DNA of 64,000 nt from Nitrospirota bacterium. Lineage in GTDB: Bacteria; Nitrospirota; Nitrospiria; 2-01-FULL-66-17. The number at the start of each line of letters is the position of its first letter. Position 1 is the stretch's first letter. The DNA is taken from positions 46,612-110,611 of the forward strand of contig JBMOMC010000002.1 in NCBI GenBank assembly GCA_049325335.1, in the 5' to 3' direction. This document shows positions 8,064 to 47,942 of the stretch, in pieces. Under the pieces are notes generated by a model. It saw only the letters and a list, made by a program, of their open reading frames with translations. It searched no databases and was not told the DNA's origin. Both the position numbers and the translations under genes were made by a program.

Positions 8064-10499
8064 TCAGGACGCCTTGTTCTCGATCACCAGCTTGTAGTGA
8101 TCCCCTTCCTGCTCCATGGACACGACGCGGTAGCCGTCGGCCTTCACGCTGCGCGGCACGTTCTCGGCGGGCTCGCCCGCGTCCAACAAGACTTCGAGGA
8201 TTTGCAGGGGATCCATTTCTTCCAATTGGAGCTTGGTTTTGACGTAGTTCATGGGACAGGCCACGCCCAACAGGTCCATTTTGATGGTCGGCGCGGTCGC
8301 GGGCTGAGCCGGAGTAGTCGAGGCGGATGGCGCCGGAGTCGTCTCCGCCTGCGAGCCCTGCGCGACCTTGAGCGAGGCGTCGATCTTGGCGAACGCGGTC
8401 CGGCACGCGTCCGCGAGCGCCTTGGCATCGGCCACGAACCGGCGGGCTTCGTCGAGGGTGATGTGCGATTTGACCGCCGCGCTCCGCTGGATCACGGCCT
8501 CGTACCGATCGCGCGGTACCACGCCCTTGTCCACCATGCGTTGCGAGAATTCCTTGAGCACCAATTCATGGCTGGTTGGCTCGATCGCTTGGGTCACCAA
8601 CAATCCCTTGGCCGCGGCCACGATGCCCAGTTCAGCCCGCATCACCGCGTCAACGGGCTTGTGTTTCTCGATGAGCACGCTGGCGTGCGCCAATTCGTAC
8701 TTGGAGTCTTCCAAGTGTTGTTCCACCATGTTAATGACGCCGCCTGCGCACTCGCCCGCGCCCGCATCCTCCAAGGAGAACGGGGTGTAGGCCCCGTAGT
8801 CCAGGTACTGCGACGGCGCGTCCGCGTGGGACGGCAAGGTGGTGTACGGTTCGAGCGCGGCCGTGATCGGGGCTTTGCCCACGCGGTCCACGAACGCGGT
8901 GAACGATTCGCCGGCTTGACGGTGATCGCGGTAGTACTCCAAGAGCGCGTCCACGACTTCCGGGAGTCGTTTGGCCGGGTACTTACCGCCCGGCAGACCG
9001 AACGCCACGCCGTGATCCGTGGATCGGCCGCCCAGGTGCAACTGGTACGCAGGGATCAACTGCCCGTCGATGCGGTGCCCGAGGCCGTGGAACCCGATTG
9101 ACGCGATGTGATGTTGGGCGCAGGAGTTGGGGCACCCGCTGACTTTGATGTCGATGCCCTTGAGGTCCTCGGCAAAAGCCTTGCCGTTGTGCGCCAATTG
9201 TTCACTGAGCGCGAGCCCGACCCCCTTGGACGAGGTGATGCCCAGACCGCAGGTGTCGGCGCCGGGGCACGTGACCACGTCGCCGACGCGGTCGGCGCCC
9301 GGCGTGCCCAACCCGATCGCGGTGAGCGCCTCGTGCAGCACGAGCAAATCCGCGTCCGCCACCCAGCGCAGGAGAAAGTTCTGAGTCACGGTGACCCGAA
9401 TGCTGCCGTGCGCGAACCGCTCCGTGATGTCGGCCAAACCGCGCAATTGCGCCGTGGTCAAGTCCCCGATCGGCAACGTGACCAATGCCGCGGAGTAGCC
9501 GGCCTGTTTTTGCGGTTTCACGTTGGTGGCCTGCCACGCCTCGAACGCGTGCGAGCGCGACCCGTTGGACGGCGGGCGCTTGGACCCGTTGGTGGGCACC
9601 GGCTCCGACATCGGTGCGAACGCGGCCAGCGTCGCGGCGTCGCGGCCTTCGCATACGAACGCGTACTCCTCAGCGTACATGGCGTAGAACTTCTCGAATC
9701 CGCCTTTTTCAATCAGGAACTTGAGTCGGGCCAGGCTGCGGTTCTTACGGTTGCCGTGGCGGTTGAACACCCGGAGCACGGCTTCACAACGCGGGCGCAA
9801 CTCCGACGCGGGCACCCACTCTTCCAGCAGATAGGGTCGTTTGGGGCTGGGCCCCAAGCCGCCGCCGACCGTGAGCCGGAATCCGATCTCTTCGCGGCCG
9901 TTCACCGTGCGTTTCACGGCCAACACGCCGAAGTCATGGATGCCGGTGAGCGCGCAATCGCTCGCGCAGCCCGAAAACGCGATCTTGAACTTGCGGGGCA
10001 GATTCTCGCACACGGGGTTGCGCAGAAAATGCATGGCCACGCCGTGGGCGTAGGGCGTCACGTCCACCACTTCGTCGCGGCAAATGCCCGCGTAGGGACA
10101 GGCGGTGACGTTGCGGACCGTGTTGCCGCACGCCTCGCGGGTGGTCAGGCCCACCTCCGCGAGTTGCCGCATGATCGCGGCGGTGTATTCGAGTTTGATG
10201 TAGTGGAGCTGAATGTCTTGGCGCGTAGTCAGGTGGGCCACGCCTCGTGAGTAGCGATCGCCGATGTCCGCGACGCGACGAAGTTGAGGCGCGGTCATCC
10301 CGCCGAACGGGATCTTGATGCGCACCATCTGCACGCCGTCTTGCCGTTGGCCGTAGATGCCGTGTTGCAACCGGAACCGTCGAAAGACCTCGGGATGGAT
10401 CTCGCCGCGCAGGAAACGCTGCGTTTCCTGTTCGTAGTTGGCGATCTCCTCCTCGATGTCAGGAGGAATGGTGTGCGTCGCGATTGTTGCCTGTGCCAT
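8064..10499 (-). CDS. sir: assimilatory sulfite reductase (sirohaem/4Fe-4S, ferredoxin-type) with C-terminal TusA-like domain
   Basis: Nitrite/sulfite reductase repeat pattern with cluster Cys (CPGADTCG, CPNSCAQHH); last ~75 aa IKMDLLGVACPMNYVKTK... resemble TusA with a Cys-Pro motif; ATG at 10499 preceded by GGAGG, ORF-track start 10565. Confidence 0.8.
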   Translation of the reverse strand: MAQATIATHTIPPDIEEEIANYEQETQRFLRGEIHPEVFRRFRLQHGIYGQRQDGVQMVRIKIPFGGMTAPQLRRVADIGDRYSRGVAHLTTRQDIQLHYIKLEYTAAIMRQLAEVGLTTREACGNTVRNVTACPYAGICRDEVVDVTPYAHGVAMHFLRNPVCENLPRKFKIAFSGCASDCALTGIHDFGVLAVKRTVNGREEIGFRLTVGGGLGPSPKRPYLLEEWVPASELRPRCEAVLRVFNRHGNRKNRSLARLKFLIEKGGFEKFYAMYAEEYAFVCEGRDAATLAAFAPMSEPVPTNGSKRPPSNGSRSHAFEAWQATNVKPQKQAGYSAALVTLPIGDLTTAQLRGLADITERFAHGSIRVTVTQNFLLRWVADADLLVLHEALTAIGLGTPGADRVGDVVTCPGADTCGLGITSSKGVGLALSEQLAHNGKAFAEDLKGIDIKVSGCPNSCAQHHIASIGFHGLGHRIDGQLIPAYQLHLGGRSTDHGVAFGLPGGKYPAKRLPEVVDALLEYYRDHRQAGESFTAFVDRVGKAPITAALEPYTTLPSHADAPSQYLDYGAYTPFSLEDAGAGECAGGVINMVEQHLEDSKYELAHASVLIEKHKPVDAVMRAELGIVAAAKGLLVTQAIEPTSHELVLKEFSQRMVDKGVVPRDRYEAVIQRSAAVKSHITLDEARRFVADAKALADACRTAFAKIDASLKVAQGSQAETTPAPSASTTPAQPATAPTIKMDLLGVACPMNYVKTKLQLEEMDPLQILEVLLDAGEPAENVPRSVKADGYRVVSMEQEGDHYKLVIENKAS

Positions 10500-10522
10500 G
10501 CGTGGTTCCTCCCGCGAACGGG

Positions 10523-11269
10523 TCAGCGGCTGGCCGTCGCCTTGGACCCGCTGTGCAACCCGCACTCTTTATGTTCCGGTGACTCCCACCACCACCGGCC
10601 CGCCCGGACATCCTCGCCGGGTTTGATCGCGCGCGTGCACGGCGCGCAGCCGATGCTGGGGAATCCCTGATCGTGCAGCTTATTATAGGGCACTTTATTG
10701 GTTTTGATGTACTCCCACACCTGGGACTCGGACCAGTGGATCAAGGGGTTGAGCTTGGCGATGCCGTTGTGCCCGGCGTCGTGCTCGATCATCGGCATGT
10801 CCGCGCGCGTGACGGCTTGGGCGCTTCGCAGTCCCGTGATCCACGCTCGCAACCCGGAGAGGGCCCGACCCAGGGGCTCGACCTTGCGCACACCGCAGCA
10901 CTCCTTGCGGTTCTCGATGCTTTGATAGAACAGGTTCACGCCCTTGGCTCGCACCATGGACTCGACCGCCGGGGCCTGCGGGAAGTAGGTCTCGATCGAC
11001 ACGCCGTAGCGATCCCGGACCGCGTCCATGACCTCGTAGGTCTCCGAGTGCAGGCGTCCGGTGTCCAAACAGAAGATCCTGGGCGTTCGGTGGAGTTTAC
11101 ACAACATGTCGACCAGCACCACGTCTTCCGCGCCGAAGCTGCACGCGAGCGAGACCTGCGAACCGAACTCGTTGAGCGCCCACTTGAGCACGACTTCGGC
11201 CGGTTGCACGGTGTATTGTTGGTTCAAGGTTTTGAGTTGTTCTTGCGTGTACAACGTAGCGGTGCTCAT
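10523..11269 (-). CDS. cysH: adenylylsulfate (APS) reductase, thioredoxin-dependent, Fe-S type
   Basis: PAPS/APS reductase fold; CC...CxxC pairs (ECCGVRK, CAPC) typical of the Fe-S-containing APS-reducing form. Confidence 0.85.
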   Translation of the reverse strand: MSTATLYTQEQLKTLNQQYTVQPAEVVLKWALNEFGSQVSLACSFGAEDVVLVDMLCKLHRTPRIFCLDTGRLHSETYEVMDAVRDRYGVSIETYFPQAPAVESMVRAKGVNLFYQSIENRKECCGVRKVEPLGRALSGLRAWITGLRSAQAVTRADMPMIEHDAGHNGIAKLNPLIHWSESQVWEYIKTNKVPYNKLHDQGFPSIGCAPCTRAIKPGEDVRAGRWWWESPEHKECGLHSGSKATASR

Positions 11270-34625: not shown

Positions 34626-35263
34626 GGCGTCTCCTTGACGCGGTCCACCCGCTTCTGGAGCGCGGCGATCCAGATCGCCACCTCCTCTTGCCCCTCTCCG
34701 CCCGCAGCCAGATAGGTCTGATAGTGCTCGATCGCCTTGTCGGGTTCATTGAGATACAGATCGTAGAGCACTGCCAGGTTGTAGTCGGCGTCTCGGAAAT
34801 CCGGCGCGGCATTGAGCGCGCGGCGGTATGCGTCTTCGGCCTGGCGAAACTTGCCTTGCTCGCGCAATGCGAGCCCCATGTTGTAGTAGGCTTCGGGGTA
34901 TTGGGGTTGGATCTTGATCGCCTGTTGGTACGCGGCTACGGCTTCCGGCAGCAGTCCCATGCGCTTGTAGACCACGCCGAGATTGTTGTGGAACACGCTC
35001 ACGTGCGGGTAGCTGGTCCGCAAGTTTTCGAACGCGGCCCTGGCTTCCTTGAGCTTTCCGTTCTCAATCAGGCTCGTACCTTTTTGGAAGCGTAGGAGAA
35101 CCTGGTCAAGTTTTTGTGCCTCAGCGGCACGCGATTCGTCGCTTCGCGCGGTGGTCTGAGTCGGGATCGGCGCGGGCGGCGGCAACATCGCGCGGGTGCA
35201 AGCCGTCAGCGCCGCGACAAGGACGAGCAACAGACGCATGAATTTCTGGGGACGGGTACTCAT
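34622..35263 (-). CDS. TPR-repeat lipoprotein
   Basis: Signal peptide with LTAC lipobox; at least three TPR units. Confidence 0.75.
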   Translation of the reverse strand: MSTRPQKFMRLLLVLVAALTACTRAMLPPPAPIPTQTTARSDESRAAEAQKLDQVLLRFQKGTSLIENGKLKEARAAFENLRTSYPHVSVFHNNLGVVYKRMGLLPEAVAAYQQAIKIQPQYPEAYYNMGLALREQGKFRQAEDAYRRALNAAPDFRDADYNLAVLYDLYLNEPDKAIEHYQTYLAAGGEGQEEVAIWIAALQKRVDRVKETP

Positions 35264-38103
35264 CGTTCAGCCGCCAAGAGCCTGTCAATGATTGACGAGA
35301 GCGGTTTAGCCGTCAACGTCTCGACATCGATATTCGAAGTGAGTCGCTCGGTTCGCTCTGGACGTTTGTAGAGCGCGGGCCGCAATTCCGCCAGCCGGTC
35401 GTAACTCTTCTTGACCCACTCGTTGTAGGCTCCCGGTTGGCTCGACGCCCGCTGCACGTTGCTGGCATACGCCTGAATCGCCTTTTCTTCAAACGGGAAC
35501 GCTTTCTCTTCCAGTTGGAACTTGTACTCGTCCACCTGTTCCGGGGTGAGTTTCTTCGGGAGTTCGGCTTCGAGCAGCGCGGTCTTGAAGTGTTCGAACA
35601 CCTCGCCCAGGCGGTACGCGGACGTGGCAACCACCTCCTGGTATCGCGTCTCCGCGGCCCGTGTGTAGAGCGTGATCGTCTTGTCCAACGCCTGAGTCTT
35701 ATTTTTGAGGTTCTTTTTGAACGGCTCCCTCAGGGCGATTTTTTTAAGCGACCGGAACGACTCCTCGGCCTGGTGGAACACGGCTTGCGCCGCGAACTGG
35801 GTGCCGGGTGCCTGTTGTTCCACCTCCGTGAACAGCTTGAGGGCCTCCATGGTCTTCCCCTGGCGCTGCCGGATCATGGCCATCTTCCACCAACCTTCAG
35901 GCGCATCCGGGTGTTTGGGGAACCGCTCGGTGAATTGCGCGAAGACCGCGTAGCTCTTGTCCCATTGGGAGGCCTTTTCGTAATCGACACCGGCGGTCCA
36001 GAGAATCTGTGGCGCCTGCGCGTGGTGTTGGGGTAACGTGGCCGCGGCTTCGAAAGCCTCGGCGGCTTCGCCCCACTGTTCACCTTGTTCGTAAATCAAG
36101 GCGGTTTGGAGCGCGGCTTTTGCGCCGAGGTCGGACGTGGGGTCGCGCTGGACCAGTTGCTGGTAGGCGGCGATCGCCTCGCGCGGCTGCTTGAGCGTTT
36201 CGTACAGACTCGCCGCCTCGAACAACGCGTCGGCCGCCAAGGGGCTCTCCGGGGCTTCGCGCGAGATGGCGGCAAACGTCTTGGCCGCGTCGCTGAGCCG
36301 ATTGGCCTTCTTGTGCTGCTCTCCCTGCTTGTACATGGCCGCGGCCAACAGATCGTTCATCTCGCGCTGCTGGGCCTTGTCCGCTGTCGGGAGGAGCGAC
36401 AGGGTCAGCGCGTACGCCGCGCGAGCCTCGTCGAAACGGCCTTGCCGCATATAGGAGTGGGCGATCAACTTCTGCGCGGTGGCGGTGCCCGTGAAATTGG
36501 GATACCGGGACAAGACCTGCCCCAACATCTCGCGCGCCTCGGCATCGCGTTGCTGGTCGAACAGGATCTCGCCGGACTTGAGCAAGACCGTGGGCGTCCG
36601 GGCATCCTTCGGGAACTGATCCGCGAACCGTTTCGTCAACGCGACGAATCGCTCGTGGCCCTTCTTGTCCTGAAGTTTTTCCGCGGCCACGATGGCGGAG
36701 TACGCGGGTTCTTTGTCCGCCGCGACTCCGGGATAGCTGTAGGCCACGGCTTCGTACGCCGCGGCCGCCTGCGCATACTCCTGCAACGCCATCAGGGATT
36801 CGGCGTACAGCAGATGGACTTCCCGCGTGTCCTTTTCCTCAGGGAACTCCGCGAGGAACTGGCGATACCATCCGACTGCTTCCCGATACTGCTCGGCCTG
36901 TTTGCTCTCCCGCGCAGCGGCATGCGCGGACACCCCGAGCCGGTACAGACTGTCTTTGACCAAGGGGCGCGAGCGGGCTCGACCGGCCTCGTCGGTGGCC
37001 TTGTACCAGACGCTGGTGCTCAGGTACCCGTTCACGAGTGCGATTCTGGCGTCACGCGCGGCTTCGGGATCCCTCTCCTTCTCGTACGCCTCGATGACAT
37101 ACGACGCGAAGATGGGCGCCATGTCGTGCATGGGATGCTGTTGTACGAACGTCCGGTAGGTCGCAATCGCCTGCTGCCGGTTCCCCTCACCCAGATATTG
37201 GTTCCCCATCATGAGGTAGAGATCTTTCTCGTAGAGCGCGATCCCGTGTTGTTTGAAATAGTCGGCCATGGGTTGCGGCCCGCCCAACCCCCGGAATGAA
37301 ATAGCCACGTACGTCAGCGCTTCCCACACGAGGGACCCGGAGTCGGCGGCCGTGGCCGGTTGTCCGGCGGTCTTCTTGTCCACGAGGTACAAGAACTGAT
37401 CGACCGCGTGCGGGTATGCGCGGAGATTGAAGTAGGTCCACCCGAGTTTGTACCGGGCCCGGTCTTGAAGGACCGGATCGTCGAGCCCAATCGTCTGCTC
37501 ATAGGCGTCAGCCGCCTGCTCGAATCGACGGCCGTCAAAGTCGGATTCGCCGATACGGAAATATGCTTCCTGGAGGTGGGGACTGGTCGGGTATTCCGCG
37601 ACCAACTTACTGAGCAACGGCTGGGCCAGGTCCCGACGCCCGGTCTCCGAGTAGGCACGGGCCAGACCGTACAGCACGTCGTCCTGCGCATGAAATGTCG
37701 GATCGGTTTCGAGCAACGTCCGGTAGGTCGTGATCGCGTCGTCGTAATTGACCAGCGGCGGGGGGCCTTGTGGGTCCTTCTCATACGCCTCCATCGCCGA
37801 GAGAAATTGCTGGTGCGCGCGTTCAAGATACAGATCCCCGAGCCGTTTGAGTGCCTCGGATCGCAGGACGGGGTCCACGGTTCCGTAATCCTTGAGAAAG
37901 CCTTCATACCCTGTGATCACGTCGGCTTTGCGAACCACGGGCAACGGCGCGCTCGAAGCCGCGTTTACGGCCTCCGAGTCCACGCGCAACACGCCGTGAT
38001 CCTTCGCGCTTGCGCAGGCCGTCAGCAGGCATGTGAGGCCGGCGAGAGACCACGTGGTCGCGGTGTGAAAAACACGGTGTTTCATTGGCTCGCCATATCC
38101 CAC
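35260..38103 (-). CDS. large TPR-repeat protein (947 aa), secreted
   Basis: Signal peptide then TPR-like helical repeats throughout. Confidence 0.8.
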   Translation of the reverse strand: MGYGEPMKHRVFHTATTWSLAGLTCLLTACASAKDHGVLRVDSEAVNAASSAPLPVVRKADVITGYEGFLKDYGTVDPVLRSEALKRLGDLYLERAHQQFLSAMEAYEKDPQGPPPLVNYDDAITTYRTLLETDPTFHAQDDVLYGLARAYSETGRRDLAQPLLSKLVAEYPTSPHLQEAYFRIGESDFDGRRFEQAADAYEQTIGLDDPVLQDRARYKLGWTYFNLRAYPHAVDQFLYLVDKKTAGQPATAADSGSLVWEALTYVAISFRGLGGPQPMADYFKQHGIALYEKDLYLMMGNQYLGEGNRQQAIATYRTFVQQHPMHDMAPIFASYVIEAYEKERDPEAARDARIALVNGYLSTSVWYKATDEAGRARSRPLVKDSLYRLGVSAHAAARESKQAEQYREAVGWYRQFLAEFPEEKDTREVHLLYAESLMALQEYAQAAAAYEAVAYSYPGVAADKEPAYSAIVAAEKLQDKKGHERFVALTKRFADQFPKDARTPTVLLKSGEILFDQQRDAEAREMLGQVLSRYPNFTGTATAQKLIAHSYMRQGRFDEARAAYALTLSLLPTADKAQQREMNDLLAAAMYKQGEQHKKANRLSDAAKTFAAISREAPESPLAADALFEAASLYETLKQPREAIAAYQQLVQRDPTSDLGAKAALQTALIYEQGEQWGEAAEAFEAAATLPQHHAQAPQILWTAGVDYEKASQWDKSYAVFAQFTERFPKHPDAPEGWWKMAMIRQRQGKTMEALKLFTEVEQQAPGTQFAAQAVFHQAEESFRSLKKIALREPFKKNLKNKTQALDKTITLYTRAAETRYQEVVATSAYRLGEVFEHFKTALLEAELPKKLTPEQVDEYKFQLEEKAFPFEEKAIQAYASNVQRASSQPGAYNEWVKKSYDRLAELRPALYKRPERTERLTSNIDVETLTAKPLSSIIDRLLAAER

Positions 38104-40010
38104 AGACGAATTTGGTTGAGCCGCGCCGCGGCGGCCATGGTTTCGATCCGCCCGTGGCGTTGGTCCACGGCTTTGACCAACAGGGCTTGCAGCGGCGGGA
38201 GGAGTTCGGCCCGCGCCGCGGTTAATCGGCGTTGGTGCGCAACCAAATCGCGTCTGATGTCACGGATGTCGCTGCGGAACGTGCCGAGTCGGTTTTCAAT
38301 GCCCGCAATGGATTCCACCAACTTCCGTTGATCGCGATCCGCCTGCTCAAGGTCCTCGTGCAATCGGTTTAACGCACGTTGAAGGTCGTCGCGTCGTCCC
38401 GGGACGTCGGTGGCAATGGTCCATACACGCTCGCCATAGAGCACATCGAGCCAGCGATCGGTCGTTTGCCACTGCGCCCGAAGGTCGTGGAGCCGGTCAC
38501 GCACGGCAGGTGTTCCGTCGTCCATCCGTCGGATGGATTCTCCGACCGCACGGCTCTTCCGCCGAGCGTCTTCCAGCTCGTCGAGCGCGGGGCGCTCAGC
38601 GCCCGATGCCCAGTTCCGCGCGGTCTCGTGCCGGACAGCCTGCTCGATCGCGGTTTGCAACACAGCCTCTCGCTGCGTGAGCGGGGCCACGGGGCTTTCA
38701 TCGAGAAAGCCTTGCACAATGGGCACGCGCTCGCGAAAAATCGCTTGTCGATGCTCGAGCATCACGTCGAAGACGGCCGTGTCCTCGAGTTTTCGGGCCA
38801 GGTAGTGCTCAAGGGCCGCGAGTTCGCCGTATTGTTTGACCCAGTATCGGAGTCCGTCGTCTTCCAGGATCGGAGCGAGGGGACTCCGCATCACTGCGTG
38901 GAAGTCCGTAAACAGCGCGTCCAATTGATCGCGATCTCGGATCAGGGATTTGATCGCAAGAAGGTTCTGCTGTGTCCGCTGGTAGGTGTCCAGGGCCGTG
39001 ACATACGATTCGAGCGCCTTGGCGTGTTGTCCCAGGCGGTCGTAGCAATGGCCGATCGTGGTGAGGGCTTCCAGCGCATAAGGATGGTCGGGGGCCGCGC
39101 GTACGAGCGCTAAAAACGCGGCAAGCGACTCGTTGTACCGCTTGCGATACAAATGAGCCCAACCTAAGCCGAACGTCGCGTCGGGGTAGAACCGGCTGCT
39201 CGAAGGCACGGAGGCCAAGGTCGGGACCGCGTTGTCGTACCACCCGGTCTCGGTGAACAACAATCCCAATGTCACTCGGCTCTTCTCGGCAAGGGCTTGG
39301 CGTTCCGCGTCGTCCTCGGGGGTGAACGCGCCCGCGCCTTCGAGCAGGCGGATCGCGGCCGACACGTCGGCCAGTTGCATCCGGGATTTGGCCGACGCCA
39401 GCGCGGCGAACGGGCGGTACGCGCTGGAAGTCGGAACCGTCGCGAACGCGCGCAGCGATTCGTCGAATTGCCCCAGCGCGTAATGGCTCATTCCGGCGAA
39501 GTAGGCGGCTTGGTCAAGCGATGCGAATGTCGGATCGCGATCAAGTCGCTTGTACGTGGACACCGCAGCCTCGTACAAGGATCGCGAGTATTGGAGCCGT
39601 TCGATCAGCAGCAACACCTGGTTACGGTCGTTTCCCGGTGGGAATGTGGCAACGAGCTGATCAAAGATGGTTCTGGCGGACCGGTGAAGGCCCCATGCCA
39701 GATAGAGGCTGCCCCGAAGCAGGCGGGTCTCGTTGAGCAGGCTGGGCTCGTTCTGAACCCCCTTTTCCATCAGCTTCAGTCGAGTCGCGGACGTCAGGTA
39801 GTCCTCCAGAAAGAAGTGGTAGTAGGCTTCTTTCTTAAGCGAGGCCACGGTGGCGGGGGATACGGGGGAGACCGGCCATGCCTCGGCCGTGGTCGCTCCG
39901 ACCTGGAGGGTGTCGGAAGCCGCAGCAAGGGGCGTGGTGCCATCCCCGGCAAAGGCCGGGAACGCCCACGCGCCGAGACTCAGGACAAGGATGTTAATGC
40001 CACGCTTCAT
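38082..40010 (-). CDS. TPR-repeat protein (642 aa), secreted
   Basis: Signal peptide; TPR-like repeats and coiled-coil C-terminal region. Confidence 0.7.
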   Translation of the reverse strand: MKRGINILVLSLGAWAFPAFAGDGTTPLAAASDTLQVGATTAEAWPVSPVSPATVASLKKEAYYHFFLEDYLTSATRLKLMEKGVQNEPSLLNETRLLRGSLYLAWGLHRSARTIFDQLVATFPPGNDRNQVLLLIERLQYSRSLYEAAVSTYKRLDRDPTFASLDQAAYFAGMSHYALGQFDESLRAFATVPTSSAYRPFAALASAKSRMQLADVSAAIRLLEGAGAFTPEDDAERQALAEKSRVTLGLLFTETGWYDNAVPTLASVPSSSRFYPDATFGLGWAHLYRKRYNESLAAFLALVRAAPDHPYALEALTTIGHCYDRLGQHAKALESYVTALDTYQRTQQNLLAIKSLIRDRDQLDALFTDFHAVMRSPLAPILEDDGLRYWVKQYGELAALEHYLARKLEDTAVFDVMLEHRQAIFRERVPIVQGFLDESPVAPLTQREAVLQTAIEQAVRHETARNWASGAERPALDELEDARRKSRAVGESIRRMDDGTPAVRDRLHDLRAQWQTTDRWLDVLYGERVWTIATDVPGRRDDLQRALNRLHEDLEQADRDQRKLVESIAGIENRLGTFRSDIRDIRRDLVAHQRRLTAARAELLPPLQALLVKAVDQRHGRIETMAAAARLNQIRLWDMASQ

Positions 40011-40542
40011 ACCCGAACTCGGGTTGTTTCTTGGCGTCGTCGTCGCGAATGACCAACTTTAAGAAAGCCGCGCCTTTCTCCTTGGCGAGGGGGATGTTCT
40101 CCGCTCGTTTGTAGTCCTGTCCTTGCGGACCTTTGCCCGTAAACACCGCGGCGATTTGATGGTCGCCTGACTTCACGTTACCCATATACAGCCGCTGAAT
40201 CCCGCCCTTTTTGAGCGCGGTGACTTCGCGCTCGGTATACAGGTGCGTGGTCACCATGGTGTCGTCGAGCACCAATTTCACGGAGTCTAAGACGAAGTAA
40301 TTCCCGCCCTCGACGCTCAGGAAAATCACCAACGAGGAGTCCTCCGGATACAACAGATCTTCCTGGAGTCGAAAGAGCCGCGTGTTGAGATCGAGCACGT
40401 CGTCTTTTAATCGCTGGATCTTCACGTCCAATGCCTCGATGTCGCGTTCAGGATTGGGAGGTTCCTCCGCCCGCGTGGGGAACCCCGTCGTGAAGACGAA
40501 CGAAAGACACCAGAATCCGACGAGTGCGTGAAATGGTTTCAT
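39994..40542 (-). CDS. hypothetical secreted protein
   Basis: ATG 40542 overlaps apbE stop (ATGA); signal peptide MKPFHALVGFWCLSFVFT; ORF-track N-terminal extension lies inside apbE. Confidence 0.5.
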   Translation of the reverse strand: MKPFHALVGFWCLSFVFTTGFPTRAEEPPNPERDIEALDVKIQRLKDDVLDLNTRLFRLQEDLLYPEDSSLVIFLSVEGGNYFVLDSVKLVLDDTMVTTHLYTEREVTALKKGGIQRLYMGNVKSGDHQIAAVFTGKGPQGQDYKRAENIPLAKEKGAAFLKLVIRDDDAKKQPEFGYEAWH

Positions 40543-41585
40543 CAGGGTTCCTTCCCGTGTTCCATAAGTTTTGCCCCGAGGCCGAGTCCCGCCAGCCCCG
40601 AGGACAGGTGCATGTCGCCGTTTCGGTCGATGATGATCGCCTCCACGTCGTCCAGTTGTTCGACCAGCGCCAGGCCTTGTTCCGGGCCCAGCACGAATAC
40701 GGTTGTCGACAACGCGTCGCTGGTCATCGCGTCCGTCGCCAAAATGGTGGCGCTGCGAGATTTCTTCGCGGGATATCCGGTGGTCGTGTCGAGAATATGG
40801 TGGTAACGCACGCCGTCTTTGACGAAGAATCGTTCGTAGTCTCCGGACGTGGAAACAGCCTGGTCTTCGAGCGGCAACACCGCGAGAATGCCGTCGGCCT
40901 TGTCCGGATCCCGAAGCCCGATTCGCCACAAATCGTCGCCGTTTGTGCCCCGGATCAGCGTGTCACCGCCCGCCATGACCATGGCGTTGTGGACTCCGTG
41001 TGCGTTGAGCACGGCCATGGCCCGGTCCATGGCGTACCCTTTGCCGATCCCGCCGAGGCCGATCTCCATCTCACGCGCAGGGAGAAACACCGTGGAGTGG
41101 TCGTCGTCGACGCGGACCTTCCGATAATCCACAAAGGGGAGCTGGGCCTTCACGGCGGCGGGGTCGGGGATCACGCCCGCGCGAAAGTTCCAAAGTTTTC
41201 CGACCGACGCGAAGGAAATGTCGAACGCGCCGTCGGAGAGTCGGGAGAAAAACAGCGAGCGTTGAATCACCTGCAACAATTCGCGACTCACCGCAACCGG
41301 CGCCACCCCGGCCTGTTGATTGATCCGGGACAGTTCGGTCTCCGGCAGAAAATTGCTCATGAGCCGTTCCAGACGGGAAACCTCGTCGAACGCGGCGTTG
41401 ACCGCGCGCCGCAGTTGTTCGCGATCGTTACCCACGGCTTTCACGATCACCTGGGTTCCCATCAACGCGCGCTCTTCGGACACGAGTACGGGTCGGGAAG
41501 GCGGCGTGACGGCCTGAACCGGCGCCACCGCTGCGCCGGCCAGCAGTACGTTAGTAAGTAAAGCCAACGCTCGTGTGTAGGACAT
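40542..41585 (-). CDS. apbE: FAD:protein FMN transferase (ApbE family)
   Basis: Signal peptide; ApbE-family pattern (GGIGKGYAMD, SGDYERFF...RYHHILD). Confidence 0.8.
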   Translation of the reverse strand: MSYTRALALLTNVLLAGAAVAPVQAVTPPSRPVLVSEERALMGTQVIVKAVGNDREQLRRAVNAAFDEVSRLERLMSNFLPETELSRINQQAGVAPVAVSRELLQVIQRSLFFSRLSDGAFDISFASVGKLWNFRAGVIPDPAAVKAQLPFVDYRKVRVDDDHSTVFLPAREMEIGLGGIGKGYAMDRAMAVLNAHGVHNAMVMAGGDTLIRGTNGDDLWRIGLRDPDKADGILAVLPLEDQAVSTSGDYERFFVKDGVRYHHILDTTTGYPAKKSRSATILATDAMTSDALSTTVFVLGPEQGLALVEQLDDVEAIIIDRNGDMHLSSGLAGLGLGAKLMEHGKEP

Positions 41586-42687
41586 GGGCTCTCTGCGAGT
41601 ACAGTGCGCCGGTGCGCGGGTCCGTAAAGTTGTCGTAGTCGTACATCAACAATGCGTAGCTGAACAGGACCGACATGTTTTCCAGCCCGTGCCACTTGAA
41701 CCCTTGGGGTTTGTATTGAAGCGATCCGCCGATCCAGTGGTCGGAGAAGCGTGATAACTCCTTGTCCCGGGCCTTGTAGATCTGGGTGGCCGGGACCCGG
41801 TCCCCGTAAAAACTGGCCTCGCCCTGACGGTAATATCGATAAAACACGCCGCCGAGCCAATCGGCGCGTATGTACCGCTGATATTCCACCTTGCCGGTAT
41901 GGGACCTGACCTCAAAGGTGTCCTGGTAGTACCGATAATCGATCTGGATGGCGCTGCGCCGCCCGATCGACACGTTGTCCGCTGATCCGGGATCAAACCC
42001 ATAACTGGTTCGCAGCGCCCACGCGTGCCCGGTCCGTGATTCAGGATACCGTTCAGGAGCAAACGCCTCGCTGTCGAGGATCGCGCTGCGGTACGGATTG
42101 TTGAGAAAACCGGAGTCAGCCGTGTTTTCATAGTTGATCTGCCCCAACCAACGAGGGGTCAATGACTGACTCAGCCCGACCGCATAAATCGTTCGGTTGG
42201 CGTGTTCCTGCCCGAACGCGGGATCGCCGTTTTTGCCGATCTCATCCCAGGAGCGAGCAAGCCGGAAAGTGAGCGTGGCGTTCTTCTCGAAGAGGTCGTG
42301 CGCCATGGCCACGGCGAACGTGTTTGAGGTGTAGTCGGACTCGTGGCTCCGCGTGTAGTTGATTCCGGTGAGGATGTCCTCGTGCAGGACGTCGGCGCCC
42401 AATGAATATTCGGTCCGCTGTTCGCGGTACGGGCTGGCCTGGGTCACCACGTCGATCGATGCCGAGCTGACCAGATCCACCCTGGCGCCGGCCTTGACCG
42501 ACAGGCGGTTGAGCAATTCCTTCTTGACGATCATGGCCGGTCCTTGAACCGTAATACCGCCGCCGCTGTAGAGGTTGTAGCCGATCGCCATATCGTCTTG
42601 GGGAGGCTCCACGGCCTCCGCGGTACCGAGCAGCCCGGCCAGCAGCGCCGCACAACCGCCGGCTTGCATGCACGCGCGCGCGTTCAC
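41551..42687 (-). CDS. DUF3570-like outer-membrane beta-barrel protein
   Basis: Signal peptide; alternating beta-strand pattern ending in aromatic residue. Confidence 0.6.
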   Translation of the reverse strand: MNARACMQAGGCAALLAGLLGTAEAVEPPQDDMAIGYNLYSGGGITVQGPAMIVKKELLNRLSVKAGARVDLVSSASIDVVTQASPYREQRTEYSLGADVLHEDILTGINYTRSHESDYTSNTFAVAMAHDLFEKNATLTFRLARSWDEIGKNGDPAFGQEHANRTIYAVGLSQSLTPRWLGQINYENTADSGFLNNPYRSAILDSEAFAPERYPESRTGHAWALRTSYGFDPGSADNVSIGRRSAIQIDYRYYQDTFEVRSHTGKVEYQRYIRADWLGGVFYRYYRQGEASFYGDRVPATQIYKARDKELSRFSDHWIGGSLQYKPQGFKWHGLENMSVLFSYALLMYDYDNFTDPRTGALYSQRAHVLHTSVGFTY

Positions 42688-42911
42688 CGGCAGCCGCAGC
42701 CCCCGCCGCTTCCGCTAAACCCGCCGCGCGATCCCTCCAACACTTCTTCGATGTGCACGTGCCATTCCGCCTGGAGGACGTTGGCGTCGAACTGCATGAT
42801 TTCGTCCGCGAGGTACTCTCGCTGCCACGGCTTCACCGCGGAGCAACCCGCGAGCAGGGCGCTGATCATCACGGTCGCAAGCACGAGGGCCTTCGCGGTC
42901 ACCGGCGTCAC
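42684..42911 (-). CDS. DUF4266-like small lipoprotein
   Basis: 75 aa, lipobox LAGC, C-terminal GGGCGC signature. Confidence 0.6.
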   Translation of the reverse strand: MTPVTAKALVLATVMISALLAGCSAVKPWQREYLADEIMQFDANVLQAEWHVHIEEVLEGSRGGFSGSGGGCGCR

Positions 42912-43432
42912 TCCTTGAGCAATGCGCGGATTTCGGATTCGTACCGATCCGGGTCGGCGGGCCCAAACCCCCAGTGCACGTGACGAAGGGTCCCGTCCTT
43001 GGCCACGACGAACGTGGTCGGCATGGAGCGAATCTGGTACAGGTCCGATGTGCTCCCGGCCGGATCGAGCAACACGGGGAACGACAGGCCGAGCGCGGCG
43101 CTCAGGTGCGAGGCCTGGGAGGACACCTTGTCGATATTGACGCCGAGGACTTCCAACCCGAGGTTCTGATACCGACGATACAGGACGTTGAAATACGGGA
43201 GTTCCTCTTTACACGGCGTGCACCACGTGGCCCAAAAATTCACGAGCACCACCCGTCCGCGCAGTTCGCTCAACTTCACGTTGCCGCCGGTCGAGCGCTT
43301 CAGCGTGAAGTCGGGCGCCTTCTTTCCCGCGCGGGGGATCTCGCTTGAAACGGGTGGCGCCAACAGCAGCACACTCAACAACGAGGCGGCCAACAACGAG
43401 ACAATGCGAATCGTACGCATCGGGTTCCTCAA
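42908..43432 (-). CDS. TlpA-family thiol:disulfide oxidoreductase
   Basis: Signal peptide; thioredoxin fold with WATWCTPCKEE active site. Confidence 0.85.
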   Translation of the reverse strand: MRNPMRTIRIVSLLAASLLSVLLLAPPVSSEIPRAGKKAPDFTLKRSTGGNVKLSELRGRVVLVNFWATWCTPCKEELPYFNVLYRRYQNLGLEVLGVNIDKVSSQASHLSAALGLSFPVLLDPAGSTSDLYQIRSMPTTFVVAKDGTLRHVHWGFGPADPDRYESEIRALLKE

Positions 43433-44079
43433 AAGAATAGGACGAGGGCGAGGGTGCCCTCGATGTTGTACGTGAGTTTGTTCACGCCCGTGACATCGGT
43501 TTCGAACATATGAAACCGCAGGTCGGGCCTCACGTTGAACCAGTCCGTGACAAAGATTTTGAACCCGGTCCCCGCATTGGCGCTGAAGTGGCTGCGGTCA
43601 TCCATGGTGACCTGGCCTAAGCCGCCCGCCAGATAGATGGCGGAGTTGATGGTGCGTTTGCGCGTGAGAAAGAGTTGGCCCGGGAAGAGATCGTAAGAGA
43701 CGCCGACGTTCCAGTATGAGAGATCGTCATTGACCAATAACGAGCGGCCCGTCAGCCGGCGAAACGCGGATTGATCGACTTGCGAGATCGCGTAACTCGC
43801 CTCGAACGCGACATCTTCGTTGACGTGATAGGTGAGTCGCAGTCCGAACACGGAGGATGCGCCGAAGCCGTCGGGCGCGTAGATGCCGGCGTACGGACCC
43901 AACTCAAACCGTTCGGTGTCCAGGCGCGCTTCTTTGAGCCGCCGATCGTCGCTCGGCGGCTTGATGACGGGTTCCTCCTCGATCGGCAGGCCCTGACCGA
44001 ATGCCGATGATCCGAGATCCACGCCCGCGCCGATTACCAGACCCATCCCCACCGCCATCCATGTCCGCCACGTCATCAT
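43429..44079 (-). CDS. outer-membrane beta-barrel protein
   Basis: ATG 44079 gives signal peptide MMTWRTWMAVGMGLVIGAG; amphipathic strands, C-terminal Phe. Confidence 0.5.
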   Translation of the reverse strand: MMTWRTWMAVGMGLVIGAGVDLGSSAFGQGLPIEEEPVIKPPSDDRRLKEARLDTERFELGPYAGIYAPDGFGASSVFGLRLTYHVNEDVAFEASYAISQVDQSAFRRLTGRSLLVNDDLSYWNVGVSYDLFPGQLFLTRKRTINSAIYLAGGLGQVTMDDRSHFSANAGTGFKIFVTDWFNVRPDLRFHMFETDVTGVNKLTYNIEGTLALVLFF

Positions 44080-44084
44080 GGTCG

Positions 44085-44807
44085 CTAGAAGTGGAACACC
44101 AATCCCGCGCTGTACTCTTGGAACTCCCTGGTGCGTTCGGTGGTCATGAACAGGGTGAAATGTCGGACGTCCACGCGCCCCTCCAGGTTCCGGAACAGCG
44201 GAACGATGACTCCGACGCCGGCATGCATGGTGGGAAACGTGCCGGAGTCGGCGTTGACCAACAGGGTGGTGGGCGTGACGTGCGCGACGCCCCCGCCCAT
44301 GGCGGCGTTGACCGCCAGCCACGACGCGCGCCACGGGGTTACCACGATCCCTCCGTGGTAGAGTTGCGTGCTGCCCAAGTCCCCGGCCCCAAAGCCTCCG
44401 GTCGCTTCGAACGCGAGATGGTCGGTGAGCGTGTGCGTGAACCGCACGCAGAGGACCGGATCACCCGCGAACGTGCCGGCGCTCCACCCCAATGCGGTAC
44501 GGCCCGCGATGAAGTCGTCATAGATTCGCTCGGTCCAACGCTTGCGGTATCCGGATGCCATCAAGGTTTTTTCGATCTCGCGTCGATGGGCCCATCCCAC
44601 GGTTCCGTTGCGGAGACGGATTTCGTACCAGTCCACGCGTTGTTTGAGCAGCCGGATGGTTTCGCCTTTCTCCGCGATATAAAAGACCGGGTAGCTGCTT
44701 CCCGGTCCGGTATGGATTTCCAGAAACGGTTCGACCACCGCGGCTTCCCGGAAGACGGGCTCCTTTCCGAACGCGACGGCGGGGCCGACCATCAGCCCCA
44801 CCGCCAT
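44085..44807 (-). CDS. SH3-like domain + outer-membrane beta-barrel protein
   Basis: ATG 44807 (MAVGLMVG); bacterial SH3-like segment then barrel strands ending in Phe. Confidence 0.45.
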   Translation of the reverse strand: MAVGLMVGPAVAFGKEPVFREAAVVEPFLEIHTGPGSSYPVFYIAEKGETIRLLKQRVDWYEIRLRNGTVGWAHRREIEKTLMASGYRKRWTERIYDDFIAGRTALGWSAGTFAGDPVLCVRFTHTLTDHLAFEATGGFGAGDLGSTQLYHGGIVVTPWRASWLAVNAAMGGGVAHVTPTTLLVNADSGTFPTMHAGVGVIVPLFRNLEGRVDVRHFTLFMTTERTREFQEYSAGLVFHF

Positions 44808-44848: not shown

Positions 44849-45310
44849 TCAAAGCGGGTTCTGGATCCAGCCCAAGATCGCGACATAATCCGCGTCCGTC
44901 GCGCTCATGAAGATGTCTCCCCCCAGGTGCTGAATCCCGCCCGCCGCGAGCGCCAATGGTTTGGTGAGCAGTTTGCTGGTCGTCGGGTTGGCGAGGTTGG
45001 CCATGCCCGCGGCCGAGTCGCTGTTGGCGAGCAACTGATCCGCGGTGCAGGAGTTTCCCGAACAGTCGAACACCCGAAAACTCCCGCCGGGTCCTCCCGA
45101 ATTCGGGTTGTCCTTGTCCCGGTAGTGGCACCCGCCCTGCGAGCAACTGCGCGCGTCGAGGATCGATTGAATCGCCGTGGCAAATACCGACTGATCCAAT
45201 TGACCGAGCGCCTCCTGCTCGCCGGGTTCCACGTGCCCGCAACCCGTTCCGAACCACGCCGTCATCATCGCGCACGCAAGTATACCCCTCGTGTGTGATC
45301 GGCCCGCCAT
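44849..45310 (-). CDS. small secreted cytochrome-c-like protein, paralog of the C-terminal module of 45313..47745
   Basis: Cys-rich; CSQGGCH (Cx4CH) at the position of CASCH in the paralog; shared C-terminal TDADY(V/A)(A/T)IL(G/N)WI. Confidence 0.5.
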   Translation of the reverse strand: MAGRSHTRGILACAMMTAWFGTGCGHVEPGEQEALGQLDQSVFATAIQSILDARSCSQGGCHYRDKDNPNSGGPGGSFRVFDCSGNSCTADQLLANSDSAAGMANLANPTTSKLLTKPLALAAGGIQHLGGDIFMSATDADYVAILGWIQNPL

Positions 45311-45312
45311 CC

Positions 45313-47745
45313 TCACTGCGCCGCGATGATCCAGTTGAGGATGGTGGCGTAATCCGCGTCCGTGGCGGCCAACGGCGCGGGATTCACCGGCTGGCCGTTG
45401 CGGACCATCGGCACCACGCCGGTGCCTTTGACGAACAGCAGGCTATTGGCCGGGTTGGTCACGTTCACGCGGGCCGCGGTCGCCCCAAAGTCGCCTTCGG
45501 GGTCTCCGGTCAGCACGAAATTGCTGTCGCCGCCCGCCACGTGACAACTCGCGCACCGTCGTTGCAAGATGGGCTGAATCGTGGTTTCGAACACGGTCTC
45601 GTCCAGATTCGCCCGGCCCGGATTGGTGATGACGTCGTAGTTGCTGAACTGCGCGCCCAGATCGATCCACTCCACGATGGTGCGTTTATCTTGGGCCGAC
45701 AACATCCCGGCGTGGTTATTGGCGTCGGTGGCCGGCAAGGCCACGGACGAACGGAGTTCCTCGCCGAAGATGCGCTCGACCAGATGGCTTTGGCGTGATT
45801 CCCCGGGCTGCACGAGGTCGGATCCGTCCGACTCCATTTCGCCGCCGAGCAGGGTGGTGTACGAGATCGGGAACCCGAGGCCCGACACATCGCCGCTCAA
45901 ATCAAGATTCCCGCTCGGGGTGGTTGACGAGTGGCACGACACGCATTCCGCGTCGAAGATCGTCTGCACGTGGTCCGTATAGTCAATGACCGCGATGGTG
46001 GGCGGCGTGTACACGGACGGCGCGCGGTTGAGCGCGATCGAATCCGCGGCTGCGCGTTGCGGCTGACCGCGACGCGGCGAATGGCAGCCGTTGCAGGTCC
46101 GGCTTTCGCCGGGCCGCACCTGCAGCCAGTTTTCCTTCACCTTAAACGACCGTCCCTCATTATCGACCACGTGCAAGGTCAGGGACGTGTCGGCCGGGAC
46201 CGTGACCCGGAACGAGCCGTCCGCTTCGACCGGGGCATATCCCAGGATTTTTTGGCGCTCGAAGTCGGTGAGCCCCATGTCTTCGACCCCCACCCCGGGC
46301 TGGCTCGGCACCGCCTGGACCACTCGAACCTGTCTGACCACTTGCAGCGACGCGTCGCCGACCAGCGCCGCGAAGTCGATGTTGCCGCTGCCGTCGCGCG
46401 GAATGGTCACCCCCAAGACGCTGTTCGACAACGCGCGGTTGGCTTCGGAGTCGTACACGCTTGTTGCCGCGAGCACGCCGGTTGTCCCGGTCCGGTTCGC
46501 AGGTGTACTGGGCTTGGTCGAGGGGATATCGCTGGCGGCCACGGCCATCAACGGCACCGGCTCCACGTAGACCTGCTGGGTTCCGGCGTTCGGCACTTTG
46601 ATGGGTTTGAGCGTTCCGTCCGCGTTGTTGAGCATCCAGATGCCATACCGAGCCTCTTCCCCCTCGGTCACCACCCCGGTATCCTCGTCTTCCATATCTT
46701 CGACCACCTCACCGGTCGAGTAGGAGACCAGGTAGCGGTTGGTCCCGTCCGGCACCGGGTACACGTTGTGATACCGGCCGACCTCGGAGGCTTCCCGGCC
46801 GGTGGGAATCACTTGGCTTCCGGTCAACTGGAGCGACGAGGTGTTGGGGTTGTCGGCTTCCGCCGCCACGTCGACCACGCCGATGGCGCCGCCTTCAAAC
46901 GTGCCGGTCAATGGCATCATGGTGCCGACCATTTGCCCATCCGGGAGCTCCCGGATGTCCAAGAACGAGTTCACCCCGGAATGGGATCCGTATTTGACGA
47001 ACATGTCGGTTCCGTCCGGTCCCATCACGAACATGGGGAACTTGTTTTCTCTGCCCAAGTGTTCCCAACGACTGAACGCAATGTTCCCGTCGCGCAGGAC
47101 AATCGGGTTGCGGTCGTGGCTTTGATTAAACGAAATCTGGACCACCTCGCCGCCGTCGCACGACGGTTGGGACGACGACACCGGTTGCGTGCGATCCAGC
47201 ATGTGCAGCACGGTGGATCGCCGGCGTTCGTATTCGTCGAGGTGCCCGGGTCGATCCGAGGAGAACACGATTCGGCCGTCGGGCAGGTACTGCGGATCCA
47301 CTTCGTTTGACGAACCGCACGTGAGCTGGACCGGATCGCTCACCCGCGTCCCGTCCGCGTTCACGTCCACTTCGTACAGATGCCACCGGTCCGCGCTGCT
47401 GGTGCGCATCGCGAACACCACCCGAAACTGCTCGTCGGTGGTCTGGGCGAACACCTCCGGATCGCTCACATCGCCGACCCCGTTCGTGACATCACCCGTG
47501 AGGTTTCGTAGGGTGCCGGATGGGGTGGCGGGCACCAGAGTCATCAGATCGCCGCCTGGTTCGAAGCGAATGGGATCCAATGGGTCACCAATCGCGTCGA
47601 GGCTCCGCGCCGCAAAGACGATCCCAGGGATGTCTTCCTGCGCGACCGGGCTCTCTCCGGTTCCGCAGGACCACGCGGCAACCCCGCCGACCAGGGACAA
47701 CGCGCCCCAACGGATCCACTTCATCGTTTGTGCGTGCAGTCGCAT
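45313..47745 (-). CDS. secreted beta-propeller (TolB/PD40-like) protein with three CxxCH haem-binding motifs
   Basis: Signal peptide; PD40-like repeats (LPDGRIVFSSDR); CNGCH, CVSCH, CASCH; ATG 47745 with GAGGA upstream. Confidence 0.65.
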   Translation of the reverse strand: MRLHAQTMKWIRWGALSLVGGVAAWSCGTGESPVAQEDIPGIVFAARSLDAIGDPLDPIRFEPGGDLMTLVPATPSGTLRNLTGDVTNGVGDVSDPEVFAQTTDEQFRVVFAMRTSSADRWHLYEVDVNADGTRVSDPVQLTCGSSNEVDPQYLPDGRIVFSSDRPGHLDEYERRRSTVLHMLDRTQPVSSSQPSCDGGEVVQISFNQSHDRNPIVLRDGNIAFSRWEHLGRENKFPMFVMGPDGTDMFVKYGSHSGVNSFLDIRELPDGQMVGTMMPLTGTFEGGAIGVVDVAAEADNPNTSSLQLTGSQVIPTGREASEVGRYHNVYPVPDGTNRYLVSYSTGEVVEDMEDEDTGVVTEGEEARYGIWMLNNADGTLKPIKVPNAGTQQVYVEPVPLMAVAASDIPSTKPSTPANRTGTTGVLAATSVYDSEANRALSNSVLGVTIPRDGSGNIDFAALVGDASLQVVRQVRVVQAVPSQPGVGVEDMGLTDFERQKILGYAPVEADGSFRVTVPADTSLTLHVVDNEGRSFKVKENWLQVRPGESRTCNGCHSPRRGQPQRAAADSIALNRAPSVYTPPTIAVIDYTDHVQTIFDAECVSCHSSTTPSGNLDLSGDVSGLGFPISYTTLLGGEMESDGSDLVQPGESRQSHLVERIFGEELRSSVALPATDANNHAGMLSAQDKRTIVEWIDLGAQFSNYDVITNPGRANLDETVFETTIQPILQRRCASCHVAGGDSNFVLTGDPEGDFGATAARVNVTNPANSLLFVKGTGVVPMVRNGQPVNPAPLAATDADYATILNWIIAAQ

Positions 47746-47942
47746 AGCGTCCTCGTTTCTCGGGGTGAAGAGTGGGTACATGGCTCGTCGCATAGGTGCA
47801 AATCGCATGCGAGGCTCGGTGTGGAGCTCGATCGCGGCCGCGGGGGCGAAACGCTCGATTGCCGGCTTGTCGTTGTTCGAACATGGACATCGGATTCAAA
47901 AATGGTGATGACCCTTCCATGGGTAATTACCATCCGGTGATG

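Follow-up and report, generated by a model that had tools for sequence, protein, structure and literature searches.

The haems of the tetrahaem cytochrome c3 are held by bis-histidine (bis-His) ligation. In the haem c attachment motif Cys-x(n)-Cys-His, n = 2 is the canonical spacing (CxxCH), and variants with n = 3, 4, 11, 15 and 17 have been documented (PMC11492766). Cytochrome c3 has two sites of the CX4CH form (PMC10454114), the solvent-exposed haem 3 of hydrazine dehydrogenase (HDH; PMC6469936) is attached at another, and a curated family of Geobacter CxxxxCH/CxxCH cytochromes (TIGR01904/PF09698) likewise uses this form. Bis-His ligation is also documented for haem alpha-II of the hydrazine synthase alpha subunit (HzsA), whose distal ligand is alphaHis772; in a 2025 study the number of structural homologues of HzsA exceeded 600, with a known function for none of them, and no function is known for HzsA-like proteins outside anammox (PMC12758564). 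In another line of work, gene clusters composed of ApbE, a DUF3570 protein, a thioredoxin-like protein and a DUF4266 protein with a C-terminal CXC motif were described, with function unknown (Meheust et al. 2021, PMC8238504), and it was demonstrated that the DUF3570 family is flavinylated by ApbE at two sites (PMC8238504). The present analysis deals with a stretch of 64,000 nucleotides from a Nitrospirota bacterium (assembly GCA_049325335.1, contig JBMOMC010000002.1, positions 46,612 to 110,611 of the forward strand), called the window hereafter, and with one short gene in it. The product of this gene (the small protein) carries a Cx4CH motif, and the gene lies between a gene for an HzsA-like protein (the big protein) and a cluster of the DUF4266/DUF3570 kind.

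It is proposed that the small protein is an exported, lipid-anchored, bis-His monohaem c-type cytochrome of the Cx4CH type, which would act as an electron relay in the DUF4266/DUF3570 cluster; a probability of roughly 0.7 is assigned to this reading. The features of the gene are as follows.

44849..45316, minus strand: the small open reading frame (ORF), from the ORF list, encoding a lipoprotein of 155 amino acids (aa), a predicted monohaem Cx4CH c-type cytochrome
45239..45241, minus strand: Cys26, putative lipobox and signal-peptide cleavage-site Cys (FGTG-C), from conservation
45125..45145, minus strand: CSQGGCH (C58..H64), predicted haem c site with two thioether Cys and the proximal His
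45047..45064, minus strand: C85..C90 (Cx4C), a second Cys pair, in the Nitrospirota subfamily only
44927..44929, minus strand: His130 in GGIQHLGG, predicted distal axial haem ligand (bis-His)

The ORF has 155 aa when read from a GTG that overlaps the TGA of the big gene as GTGA, and 153 aa if the following ATG is used. For the identical protein in a metagenome-assembled genome (MAG; ACOYXR_03850), NCBI annotates a start at Met18, which gives 138 aa; this start would remove the basic n-region of the signal peptide, and the homologues support the upstream GTG or ATG. The N-terminus is basic and hydrophobic and is followed by the conserved Cys26, as would be expected of an exported c-type cytochrome. 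Cys26 is present in all of 28 Nitrospirota homologues, its conservation in 68 diverse stand-alone family members is 90% or higher, and canonical lipoboxes (LLAGC, ISAGC) are found in distant members. The 28 Nitrospirota homologues also keep C58, C63, H64 and H130 without exception, together with C85/C90 and an RDK/GGPGG loop. H130 lies in a GG-x-x-H-x-GG motif, 20 residues N-terminal to the conserved Trp of the C-terminal helix. The AlphaFold2 model, calculated from a deeper alignment, had a predicted local distance difference test (pLDDT) score of 90.3 and a predicted template modelling (pTM) score of 0.76; in it, a helix at residues 42-55 leads into CSQGGCH, followed by a central and a C-terminal helix.

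Close homologues of the small protein formed 59 clusters with 54-100% identity; none had a Pfam domain, the taxon labels among them were all Nitrospirota/Nitrospiria, and the names, where given, were 'hypothetical protein'. A profile search of 1.84 billion representatives extended the family to 827 clusters (50% identity) at E<=1e-3, with 136 at E<=1e-10. Spacing, size and conservation were counted on the best 150 of the 827 cluster representatives, with 150 full-length modules used for residue conservation. By length, 72 of these proteins are stand-alone (<=210 aa), 22 have 211-399 aa and 56 are larger. At the aligned site their modules carry Cx4CH in 165 cases, CxxCH in 11, Cx5CH in 9, Cx6CH in 3 and Cx3CH in one, in a ranking that favours Cx4CH, as the query profile carries that spacing itself. 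Near-invariant positions in the 150 modules were C63 (148), W150 (148), H130 (147), H64 (139), G132 (138) and L121 (135), of which H130 provides the conserved candidate for a distal axial ligand; C58 was in register in 131 of 150, the remainder being shifted by the other spacings. In a set of 68 stand-alone members, with identities down to 26%, the only invariant columns were C58, C63, H64 and H130, though the set had been hand-picked, mostly from Cx4CH-bearing matches, and only its H130 result is unbiased. Positions 59-62, between the two Cys residues, are occupied by small residues (A/S/G/N). Met105 was considered as the distal ligand and rejected, being F, L or M across the family. The pair C85/C90 was likewise rejected as part of the active site, being specific to the subfamily and not kept across the wider family; it is probably a structural disulfide.

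The family has gone without annotation. The names of its clusters are all 'hypothetical' or missing, and a dash stands in the precomputed Pfam column for every protein-search match, including those of a later search with the 68-member alignment, which added little except a Kofleriaceae member. A related-locus search with the 28-homologue alignment returned 12 species, all Nitrospirota. The small protein itself matched no family at E<=1 in Pfam or NCBIfam and thus falls in none of their cytochrome c families; the planctomycete-type cytochrome profile which the earlier note on this DNA had pointed to (PSCyt1) does not match it either, nor does any other Pfam or NCBIfam cytochrome model. Eight other stand-alone members scanned with NCBIfam were without a family match. 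The Geobacter models TIGR01904 and PF09698 gave the big protein 14.1 bits (cutoff 27) and 11.2 bits (cutoff 21.7), both sub-threshold; TIGR01904 gave protein P0079 17.8 bits against the cutoff of 27, and there was no match to the small protein. By its sequence, then, the small protein is typical of its domain family, which is large and unannotated and whose members as a rule carry Cx4CH. This family, absent from Pfam and NCBIfam, has its 827 clusters in Nitrospirota, Gammaproteobacteria, Myxococcota and marine metagenomes, and cytochrome counts that rely on CxxCH alone would overlook it. Three further proteins, P0062 (850 aa), P0063 (879 aa) and P0197 (598 aa), contain three to four tandem Cx4CH/Cx5CH modules and no Pfam domain, and these could be multihaem 'wires' made of the same type of module.

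The homology of the small protein with the big protein was examined with reference to the following features of the latter.

45313..47808, minus strand: HzsA-like lipoprotein with a PD40 beta-propeller, an HZS_alpha middle domain and three CxxCH haem modules (the big protein)
46081..46095, minus strand: CNGCH (aa 572-576), predicted haem site 1, where the HZS_alpha domain ends; it aligns with CSGCH in HzsA
45622..46017, minus strand: haem module 2 (aa 598-729), from the phmmer alignment to residues 643-770 of 5c2v_A
45931..45945, minus strand: CVSCH (aa 622-626) of module 2, from the motif
45712..45714, minus strand: putative distal His699 of module 2, invariant in 116/116 homologues
45316..45621, minus strand: haem module 3 (aa 730-831), extra beyond the end of HzsA, from BLASTP and hhalign
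45541..45555, minus strand: CASCH (C752..H756; aa 752-756) of module 3, from the motif
45406..45408, minus strand: Met801, candidate distal ligand of module 3 in the Nitrospirota subgroup

It had been claimed in the earlier note that the C-terminal module of the big protein and the small protein are homologous, share the ending TDADY..IL.WI and differ in their Cys-His motifs, and all three observations hold. BLASTP aligned residues 735-827 of the big protein with residues 40-151 of the small one (E 2e-8, 30% identity), the endings read ATDADYATILNWI in the big and ATDADYVAILGWI in the small protein, and C752-A-S-C-H756 in the former contrasts with C58-S-Q-G-G-C-H64 in the latter. The two motifs differ by a two-residue insertion between the Cys residues. 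On comparing the families with hhalign, the small family and the big module-3 family were aligned over 105 columns with a probability of 99.2% (E 2.3e-19), C58 falling on C752 and C63-H64 on C755-H756 with no Cys placed elsewhere, and the match to module 2, which is of the HzsA alpha-II type, reached 87.6% (E 3.5e-6). The same program places H130 on H699 of module 2, and H699 in turn aligns with the His in LLHNKFL of the HzsA structure 5c2v_A. This His appears to be alphaHis772, if an offset of ~27 residues between the PDB chain and the precursor numbering is assumed.

By profile comparison, then, the haem alpha-II domain of HzsA (5c2v chain A) and the equivalent modules of HZS_alpha proteins are homologous to the small protein, with CH and the distal His in register. 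The order of elements is the same, namely a helix, Cys-x-n-Cys-His, and, 15-20 residues ahead of a C-terminal helix that contains a conserved Trp, a distal His. The small protein differs in having Cx4CH in place of the canonical CxxCH, in being a stand-alone lipoprotein rather than a domain, and in lacking a Pfam model. It shares the rare CX4CH spacing with cytochrome c3 and haem 3 of HDH (PMC10454114, PMC6469936, PMC11492766), but these are multihaem proteins with unrelated folds and no detected sequence similarity, whereas the small protein is predicted to be a class-I-like helical domain with a single haem. PccH (4rlr) and FoxE (5mab), a monohaem and a dihaem cytochrome, are also counted among the closest known systems.

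The earlier note had left two options for CSQGGCH, an unusual haem attachment site or a haem-free derivative. Of these, the unusual haem site is the better option; the conservation of C, C, H and the distal H down to 26% identity disfavours the haem-free alternative. With CSQGGCH at aa 58-64 the small protein has the Cys-x(n)-Cys-His of a c-type cytochrome, and the conserved quartet of two Cys, the adjacent His and a distal His is, as judged from alignments, what a bis-His c-type haem needs; the small protein probably binds haem. A haem-free protein would retain the cytochrome-like fold and either use Cx4C as a redox or structural disulfide or bind Zn, Cu or Fe through C58/C63/H64/H130, and its part would be in thiol-redox chemistry or metal handling, together with the operon's thioredoxin and CXC protein, DUF4266. 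A TlpA-like thioredoxin and a CXC lipoprotein are indeed encoded in the operon (PMC8238504), and an invariant set of C, C, H and H could in principle form a metal site, but the Cys and His of CH, being neighbours, would be badly placed to chelate one metal ion together. The range of spacings from Cx2 to Cx6 may be easier to accommodate in a disulfide loop than by haem lyases; against this, CX4CH, CX3CH and longer spacings are documented as haem sites (PMC11492766), and homologous modules in the same proteins carry canonical CxxCH. Finally, no cytochrome hidden Markov model (HMM) recognises the small protein, whereas c-type cytochromes appear to be its top structural neighbours, and a helix followed by C-x-n-C-H, with a distal His aligned to H699, is the signature of haem c. 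The haem-free alternative is therefore regarded as unlikely.

Two results weigh against the proposed cytochrome. A Foldseek search of the PDB with the confident AlphaFold2 model returned no match, and the 64-kb window yielded no genes for cytochrome c maturation. The three canonical CxxCH sites in the neighbouring gene, however, suggest that the organism matures c-type cytochromes. A profile of the 28 Nitrospirota small proteins gave only a chance globin match (E 1.1) among PDB sequences.

The earlier note had spoken of a duplicated module with a variant motif in the stand-alone copy; a recent or local duplication could not be upheld, as the paralogy is old and Cx4CH is normal in the family. 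An HMM of the Nitrospirota small proteins gave Cx4CH modules from distant lineages 35-40 bits each, and the adjacent module 3 only 14 bits. Moreover, a big protein with three motifs was accompanied by a Cx4CH small protein in every pair examined, these being from two Nitrospirota lineages, two marine or sediment metagenome lineages and Thioalkalivibrio sulfidiphilus; the sites of the big protein were CxxCH, with site 2 sometimes Cx3CH. From the recurring pair and the contrast in bit scores it follows that the modules split long ago and that each kept its own spacing. The small protein is thus, in terms of profile similarity, an old paralogue of module 3 of the big protein. Had the C-terminal module of the big protein been duplicated in tandem recently and then drifted, the small gene would be a decaying or neutral copy and its Cx4CH an accident. 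The adjacency of the genes and the common ending TDADY..IL.WI would fit such a history, but the separate Cx4CH gene is conserved from Nitrospirota to Gammaproteobacteria and Myxococcota, its family numbers 827 clusters, and the small protein is nearer to the distant modules than to that of its neighbour. A recent degenerate duplicate is effectively refuted by family size, recurring pairs and bit scores, and we give it hardly any weight.

The ORF of the big protein measures 831 aa from the first ATG. Since its homologues measure 806-815 aa, Met22 (at 47745) is the probable start; the lipobox reads AAWSC48, with Cys48 at 47665..47667. PD40 and TolB-like propeller signals were detected, together with Pfam HZS_alpha (E 8e-20), and phmmer aligned the protein with the hydrazine synthase alpha crystal-structure sequence 5c2v_A (E 5e-19) over the middle and haem alpha-II domains; it runs ~100 aa past the end of HzsA. 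There are 1435 homologues at E<=1e-10. By alignment, site 1 is equivalent to haem alpha-I of HzsA and module 2 to its haem alpha-II domain. Among 116 homologues, site 1 is CxxCH in all 116, the site of module 2 is CxxCH in 108 and Cx3CH in 8 (e.g. CTTACH, CAQACH), and that of module 3 is CxxCH in 114 and Cx3CH in 2; given the Cx3CH cases at sites 2 and 3, Cys-Cys spacing would seem to be generally plastic in this module superfamily. Module 3 is matched by Pfam Cytochrome_CBB3 (745-827), and its candidate ligand M801 is kept in only 45/116 homologues. The big protein was also considered as a hydrazine synthase, and this identity was rejected because NCBIfam hydrazine_alpha gave 104.5 bits, far under the equivalog cutoff of 800. 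Pfam scans of the ORFs on either side of the big gene, in which no dedicated HzsB/HzsC model was run, showed neither HzsB nor HzsC; the families found in those scans were SH3_3, OMP_b-brl, redoxin/thioredoxin, DUF3570, ApbE, TPR, MatE and YceI.

The genes that follow the small gene on the minus strand are listed below.

44085..44807, minus strand: SH3_3 protein (Pfam E 9e-10) with an outer-membrane-barrel-like C-terminal half
43429..44079, minus strand: outer-membrane beta-barrel protein (Pfam OMP_b-brl E 4e-5, under the curated cutoff)
42908..43432, minus strand: TlpA/ResA-like periplasmic thioredoxin with WCTPC (AhpC-TSA E 1e-32, Redoxin E 3e-27)
42684..42911, minus strand: DUF4266 lipoprotein with C-terminal GCGCR (CXC motif), assigned from synteny, its counterparts carrying precomputed DUF4266
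41551..42687, minus strand: DUF3570 protein (Pfam E 8e-29) with DLVSSAS and DVVTQAS motifs, ending in ...GFTY like an outer-membrane barrel
40542..41585, minus strand: ApbE FAD:protein FMN transferase (Pfam ApbE E 7e-86)
39994..40542, minus strand: secreted 182-aa protein with no Pfam match, operon tail
38082..40010 and 35260..38103, minus strand: two large TPR proteins, operon tail (35260..40542)

All four components of the cluster described by Meheust et al. (PMC8238504) are thus found directly downstream of the small gene, in the minus-strand order HzsA-like, Cx4CH, SH3_3/barrel, OMP barrel, thioredoxin, DUF4266, DUF3570, ApbE, 182-aa protein and two TPR proteins. The gene upstream of the HzsA-like gene varies among genomes (MATE, rhodanese, enolase), and the operon is therefore taken to start at the HzsA-like gene. 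The order recurs in other Nitrospirota (loci L001-L004) and in Tara/JGI marine contigs (L005-L008), and also in T. sulfidiphilus HL-EbGr7 (L009), where ApbE has moved upstream. The orthologue of the small protein in T. sulfidiphilus HL-EbGr7 has 168 aa, and its gene (L009 11846-12352; approximately 579860-580366 of CP001339.1, complement) lies immediately 3' of an HZS_alpha gene encoding 944 aa. The position of the SH3_3 gene is conserved in L001, L004, L005, L007 and L009, that of the OMP barrel gene in related loci, and the order of the tail, with the 182-aa protein and the two TPR proteins, in L001, L004, L007 and L009.

In 12 of 12 distinct contexts examined, whose named lineages are Nitrospirota, Thioalkalivibrio and Kofleriaceae, DUF3570 and DUF4266 were adjacent to the Cx4CH gene, and HZS_alpha was present in 9. 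The Cx4CH protein is thus a fixed component of the DUF4266/DUF3570 extracytoplasmic cluster, often together with ApbE and thioredoxin, although the components listed by Meheust et al. (PMC8238504) include no cytochrome. Annotation in that study was based on Pfam and KEGG (PMC8238504), so that a protein with no Pfam match would go unannotated there. Its main text contains no HZS, HZS_alpha, HzsA, PF18582 or hydrazine, and PF18582, HZS_alpha and PF12094 were not found in the searched portion of the eLife paper's supplements. A literature search on Thioalkalivibrio returned nothing on this locus.

All 12 DUF3570 proteins of these contexts contain D-x-x-[ST]-[SGA]-A-[ST] and a second similar motif, which match, as sequence motifs, the family's two demonstrated flavinylation sites (PMC8238504). 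The protein is probably an outer-membrane barrel, as it has an aromatic C-terminus and was insoluble in PMC8238504. It was further observed (in the window, L001, L004, L005, L007, L009 and L022-L027) that the central Gly of [S/T]GA[S/T] is often S, A or Q; in the window the residues are S (DLVSSAS) and Q (DVVTQAS). Most of the Cx4CH-linked DUF3570 proteins end in an aromatic residue, like outer-membrane barrels.

HzsA-like proteins are associated with the Cx4CH module physically, by gene adjacency and by fusion. The N-terminus of the HzsA-like protein carries two fused Cx4CH modules in one lineage, where the next gene is nevertheless again a stand-alone Cx4CH gene; these fused-module clusters have adjacent genes for thioredoxin, DUF4266 and DUF3570, and L023 has ApbE as well. 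Unlike the alpha-II domain, the Cx4CH protein is also found away from any HzsA-like gene. Two metagenomic contigs and one MAG of the Kofleriaceae have the Cx4CH gene directly 3' of DUF3570, with DUF4266 alongside, and no HzsA-like gene was found within 8 kb. These arrangements bear on the possibility that the small protein binds haem but relays no electrons, being either a stable subunit that gives the HzsA-like enzyme a fourth haem, or a haem sensor or chaperone for the DUF3570 system. The translational coupling to the big gene would suit a stable subunit, as would the fusion of the same module to HzsA-like proteins. Yet systems with the fused module keep a separate stand-alone copy, and the Cx4CH protein occurs with DUF3570 and DUF4266 where no HzsA-like gene is near; both facts speak for an independent function linked to DUF3570. 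A non-relay role is accordingly thought improbable.

In the proposed relay, the host maturation system would attach haem covalently at C58 and C63, and H64 as the proximal and H130 as the distal iron ligand would give a low-spin, bis-His electron-transfer haem. Single electrons would then travel by way of the cytochrome between the flavins of the outer-membrane protein DUF3570 and the haems of the HzsA-like protein, in clusters that have one. By analogy with haem 3 of HDH (PMC6469936) it may be speculated that the longer Cys-Cys loop of small residues exposes the haem edge for docking. More tentatively, and with less confidence than in the relay itself, it is possible that the flavinylated DUF3570 barrel has in the Cx4CH lipoprotein the haem partner that it had so far seemed to lack, the two forming a hybrid flavin-haem outer-membrane conduit that, in many lineages, feeds or drains an HzsA-like enzyme with non-hydrazine chemistry. 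If true, this would amount to a new and widespread extracytoplasmic redox system, the signature cytochrome of which escaped Pfam-based surveys, and the DUF3570/ApbE system would gain an unrecognised constant component with a physical link to HzsA-like proteins. Haem c attachment at CX4CH and bis-His monohaem relays are established and nothing is overturned here; what appears to be new is the family, its size, its missing annotation and its link to DUF3570 and HzsA-like proteins, as it is absent from Pfam, NCBIfam and the searchable literature. As the operon is present in the cultured T. sulfidiphilus HL-EbGr7, which has a complete genome, haem binding, ligation, redox potential and partners are directly testable.

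Several observations on the related clusters may be added. A minimal cluster of DUF4266, DUF3570 and the Cx4CH lipoprotein is seen in L024 (6767-8480), L026 (6550-8495) and L027 (6544-8459), with no HzsA-like, thioredoxin or ApbE gene called within the flanks fetched; L026 and L027 also have, ~1 kb downstream, an Oxidored_molyb (sulfite-oxidase-type) gene. In L023 (7473-9920) and L025 (10364-12829), a second large beta-propeller protein of 815-821 aa is encoded 3' of the operon, with Lactonase/YNCE-type matches and, in L025, a faint Cytochrom_C match; it occurs in clusters with a fused or ~960-aa HzsA-like protein. The secreted protein of ~180 aa (window 39994-40542, minus strand; L001 12801-13349; L009 15698-16225), which has no Pfam match, shows the motif LFRLQEDLL.P... 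and always stands after DUF3570/ApbE and before the two large TPR proteins. Elsewhere in the window, at 8064-10565 and 6783-7946 on the minus strand, a NIR_SIR sulfite/nitrite reductase is fused to a C-terminal TusA domain and adjoins ATP sulfurylase.

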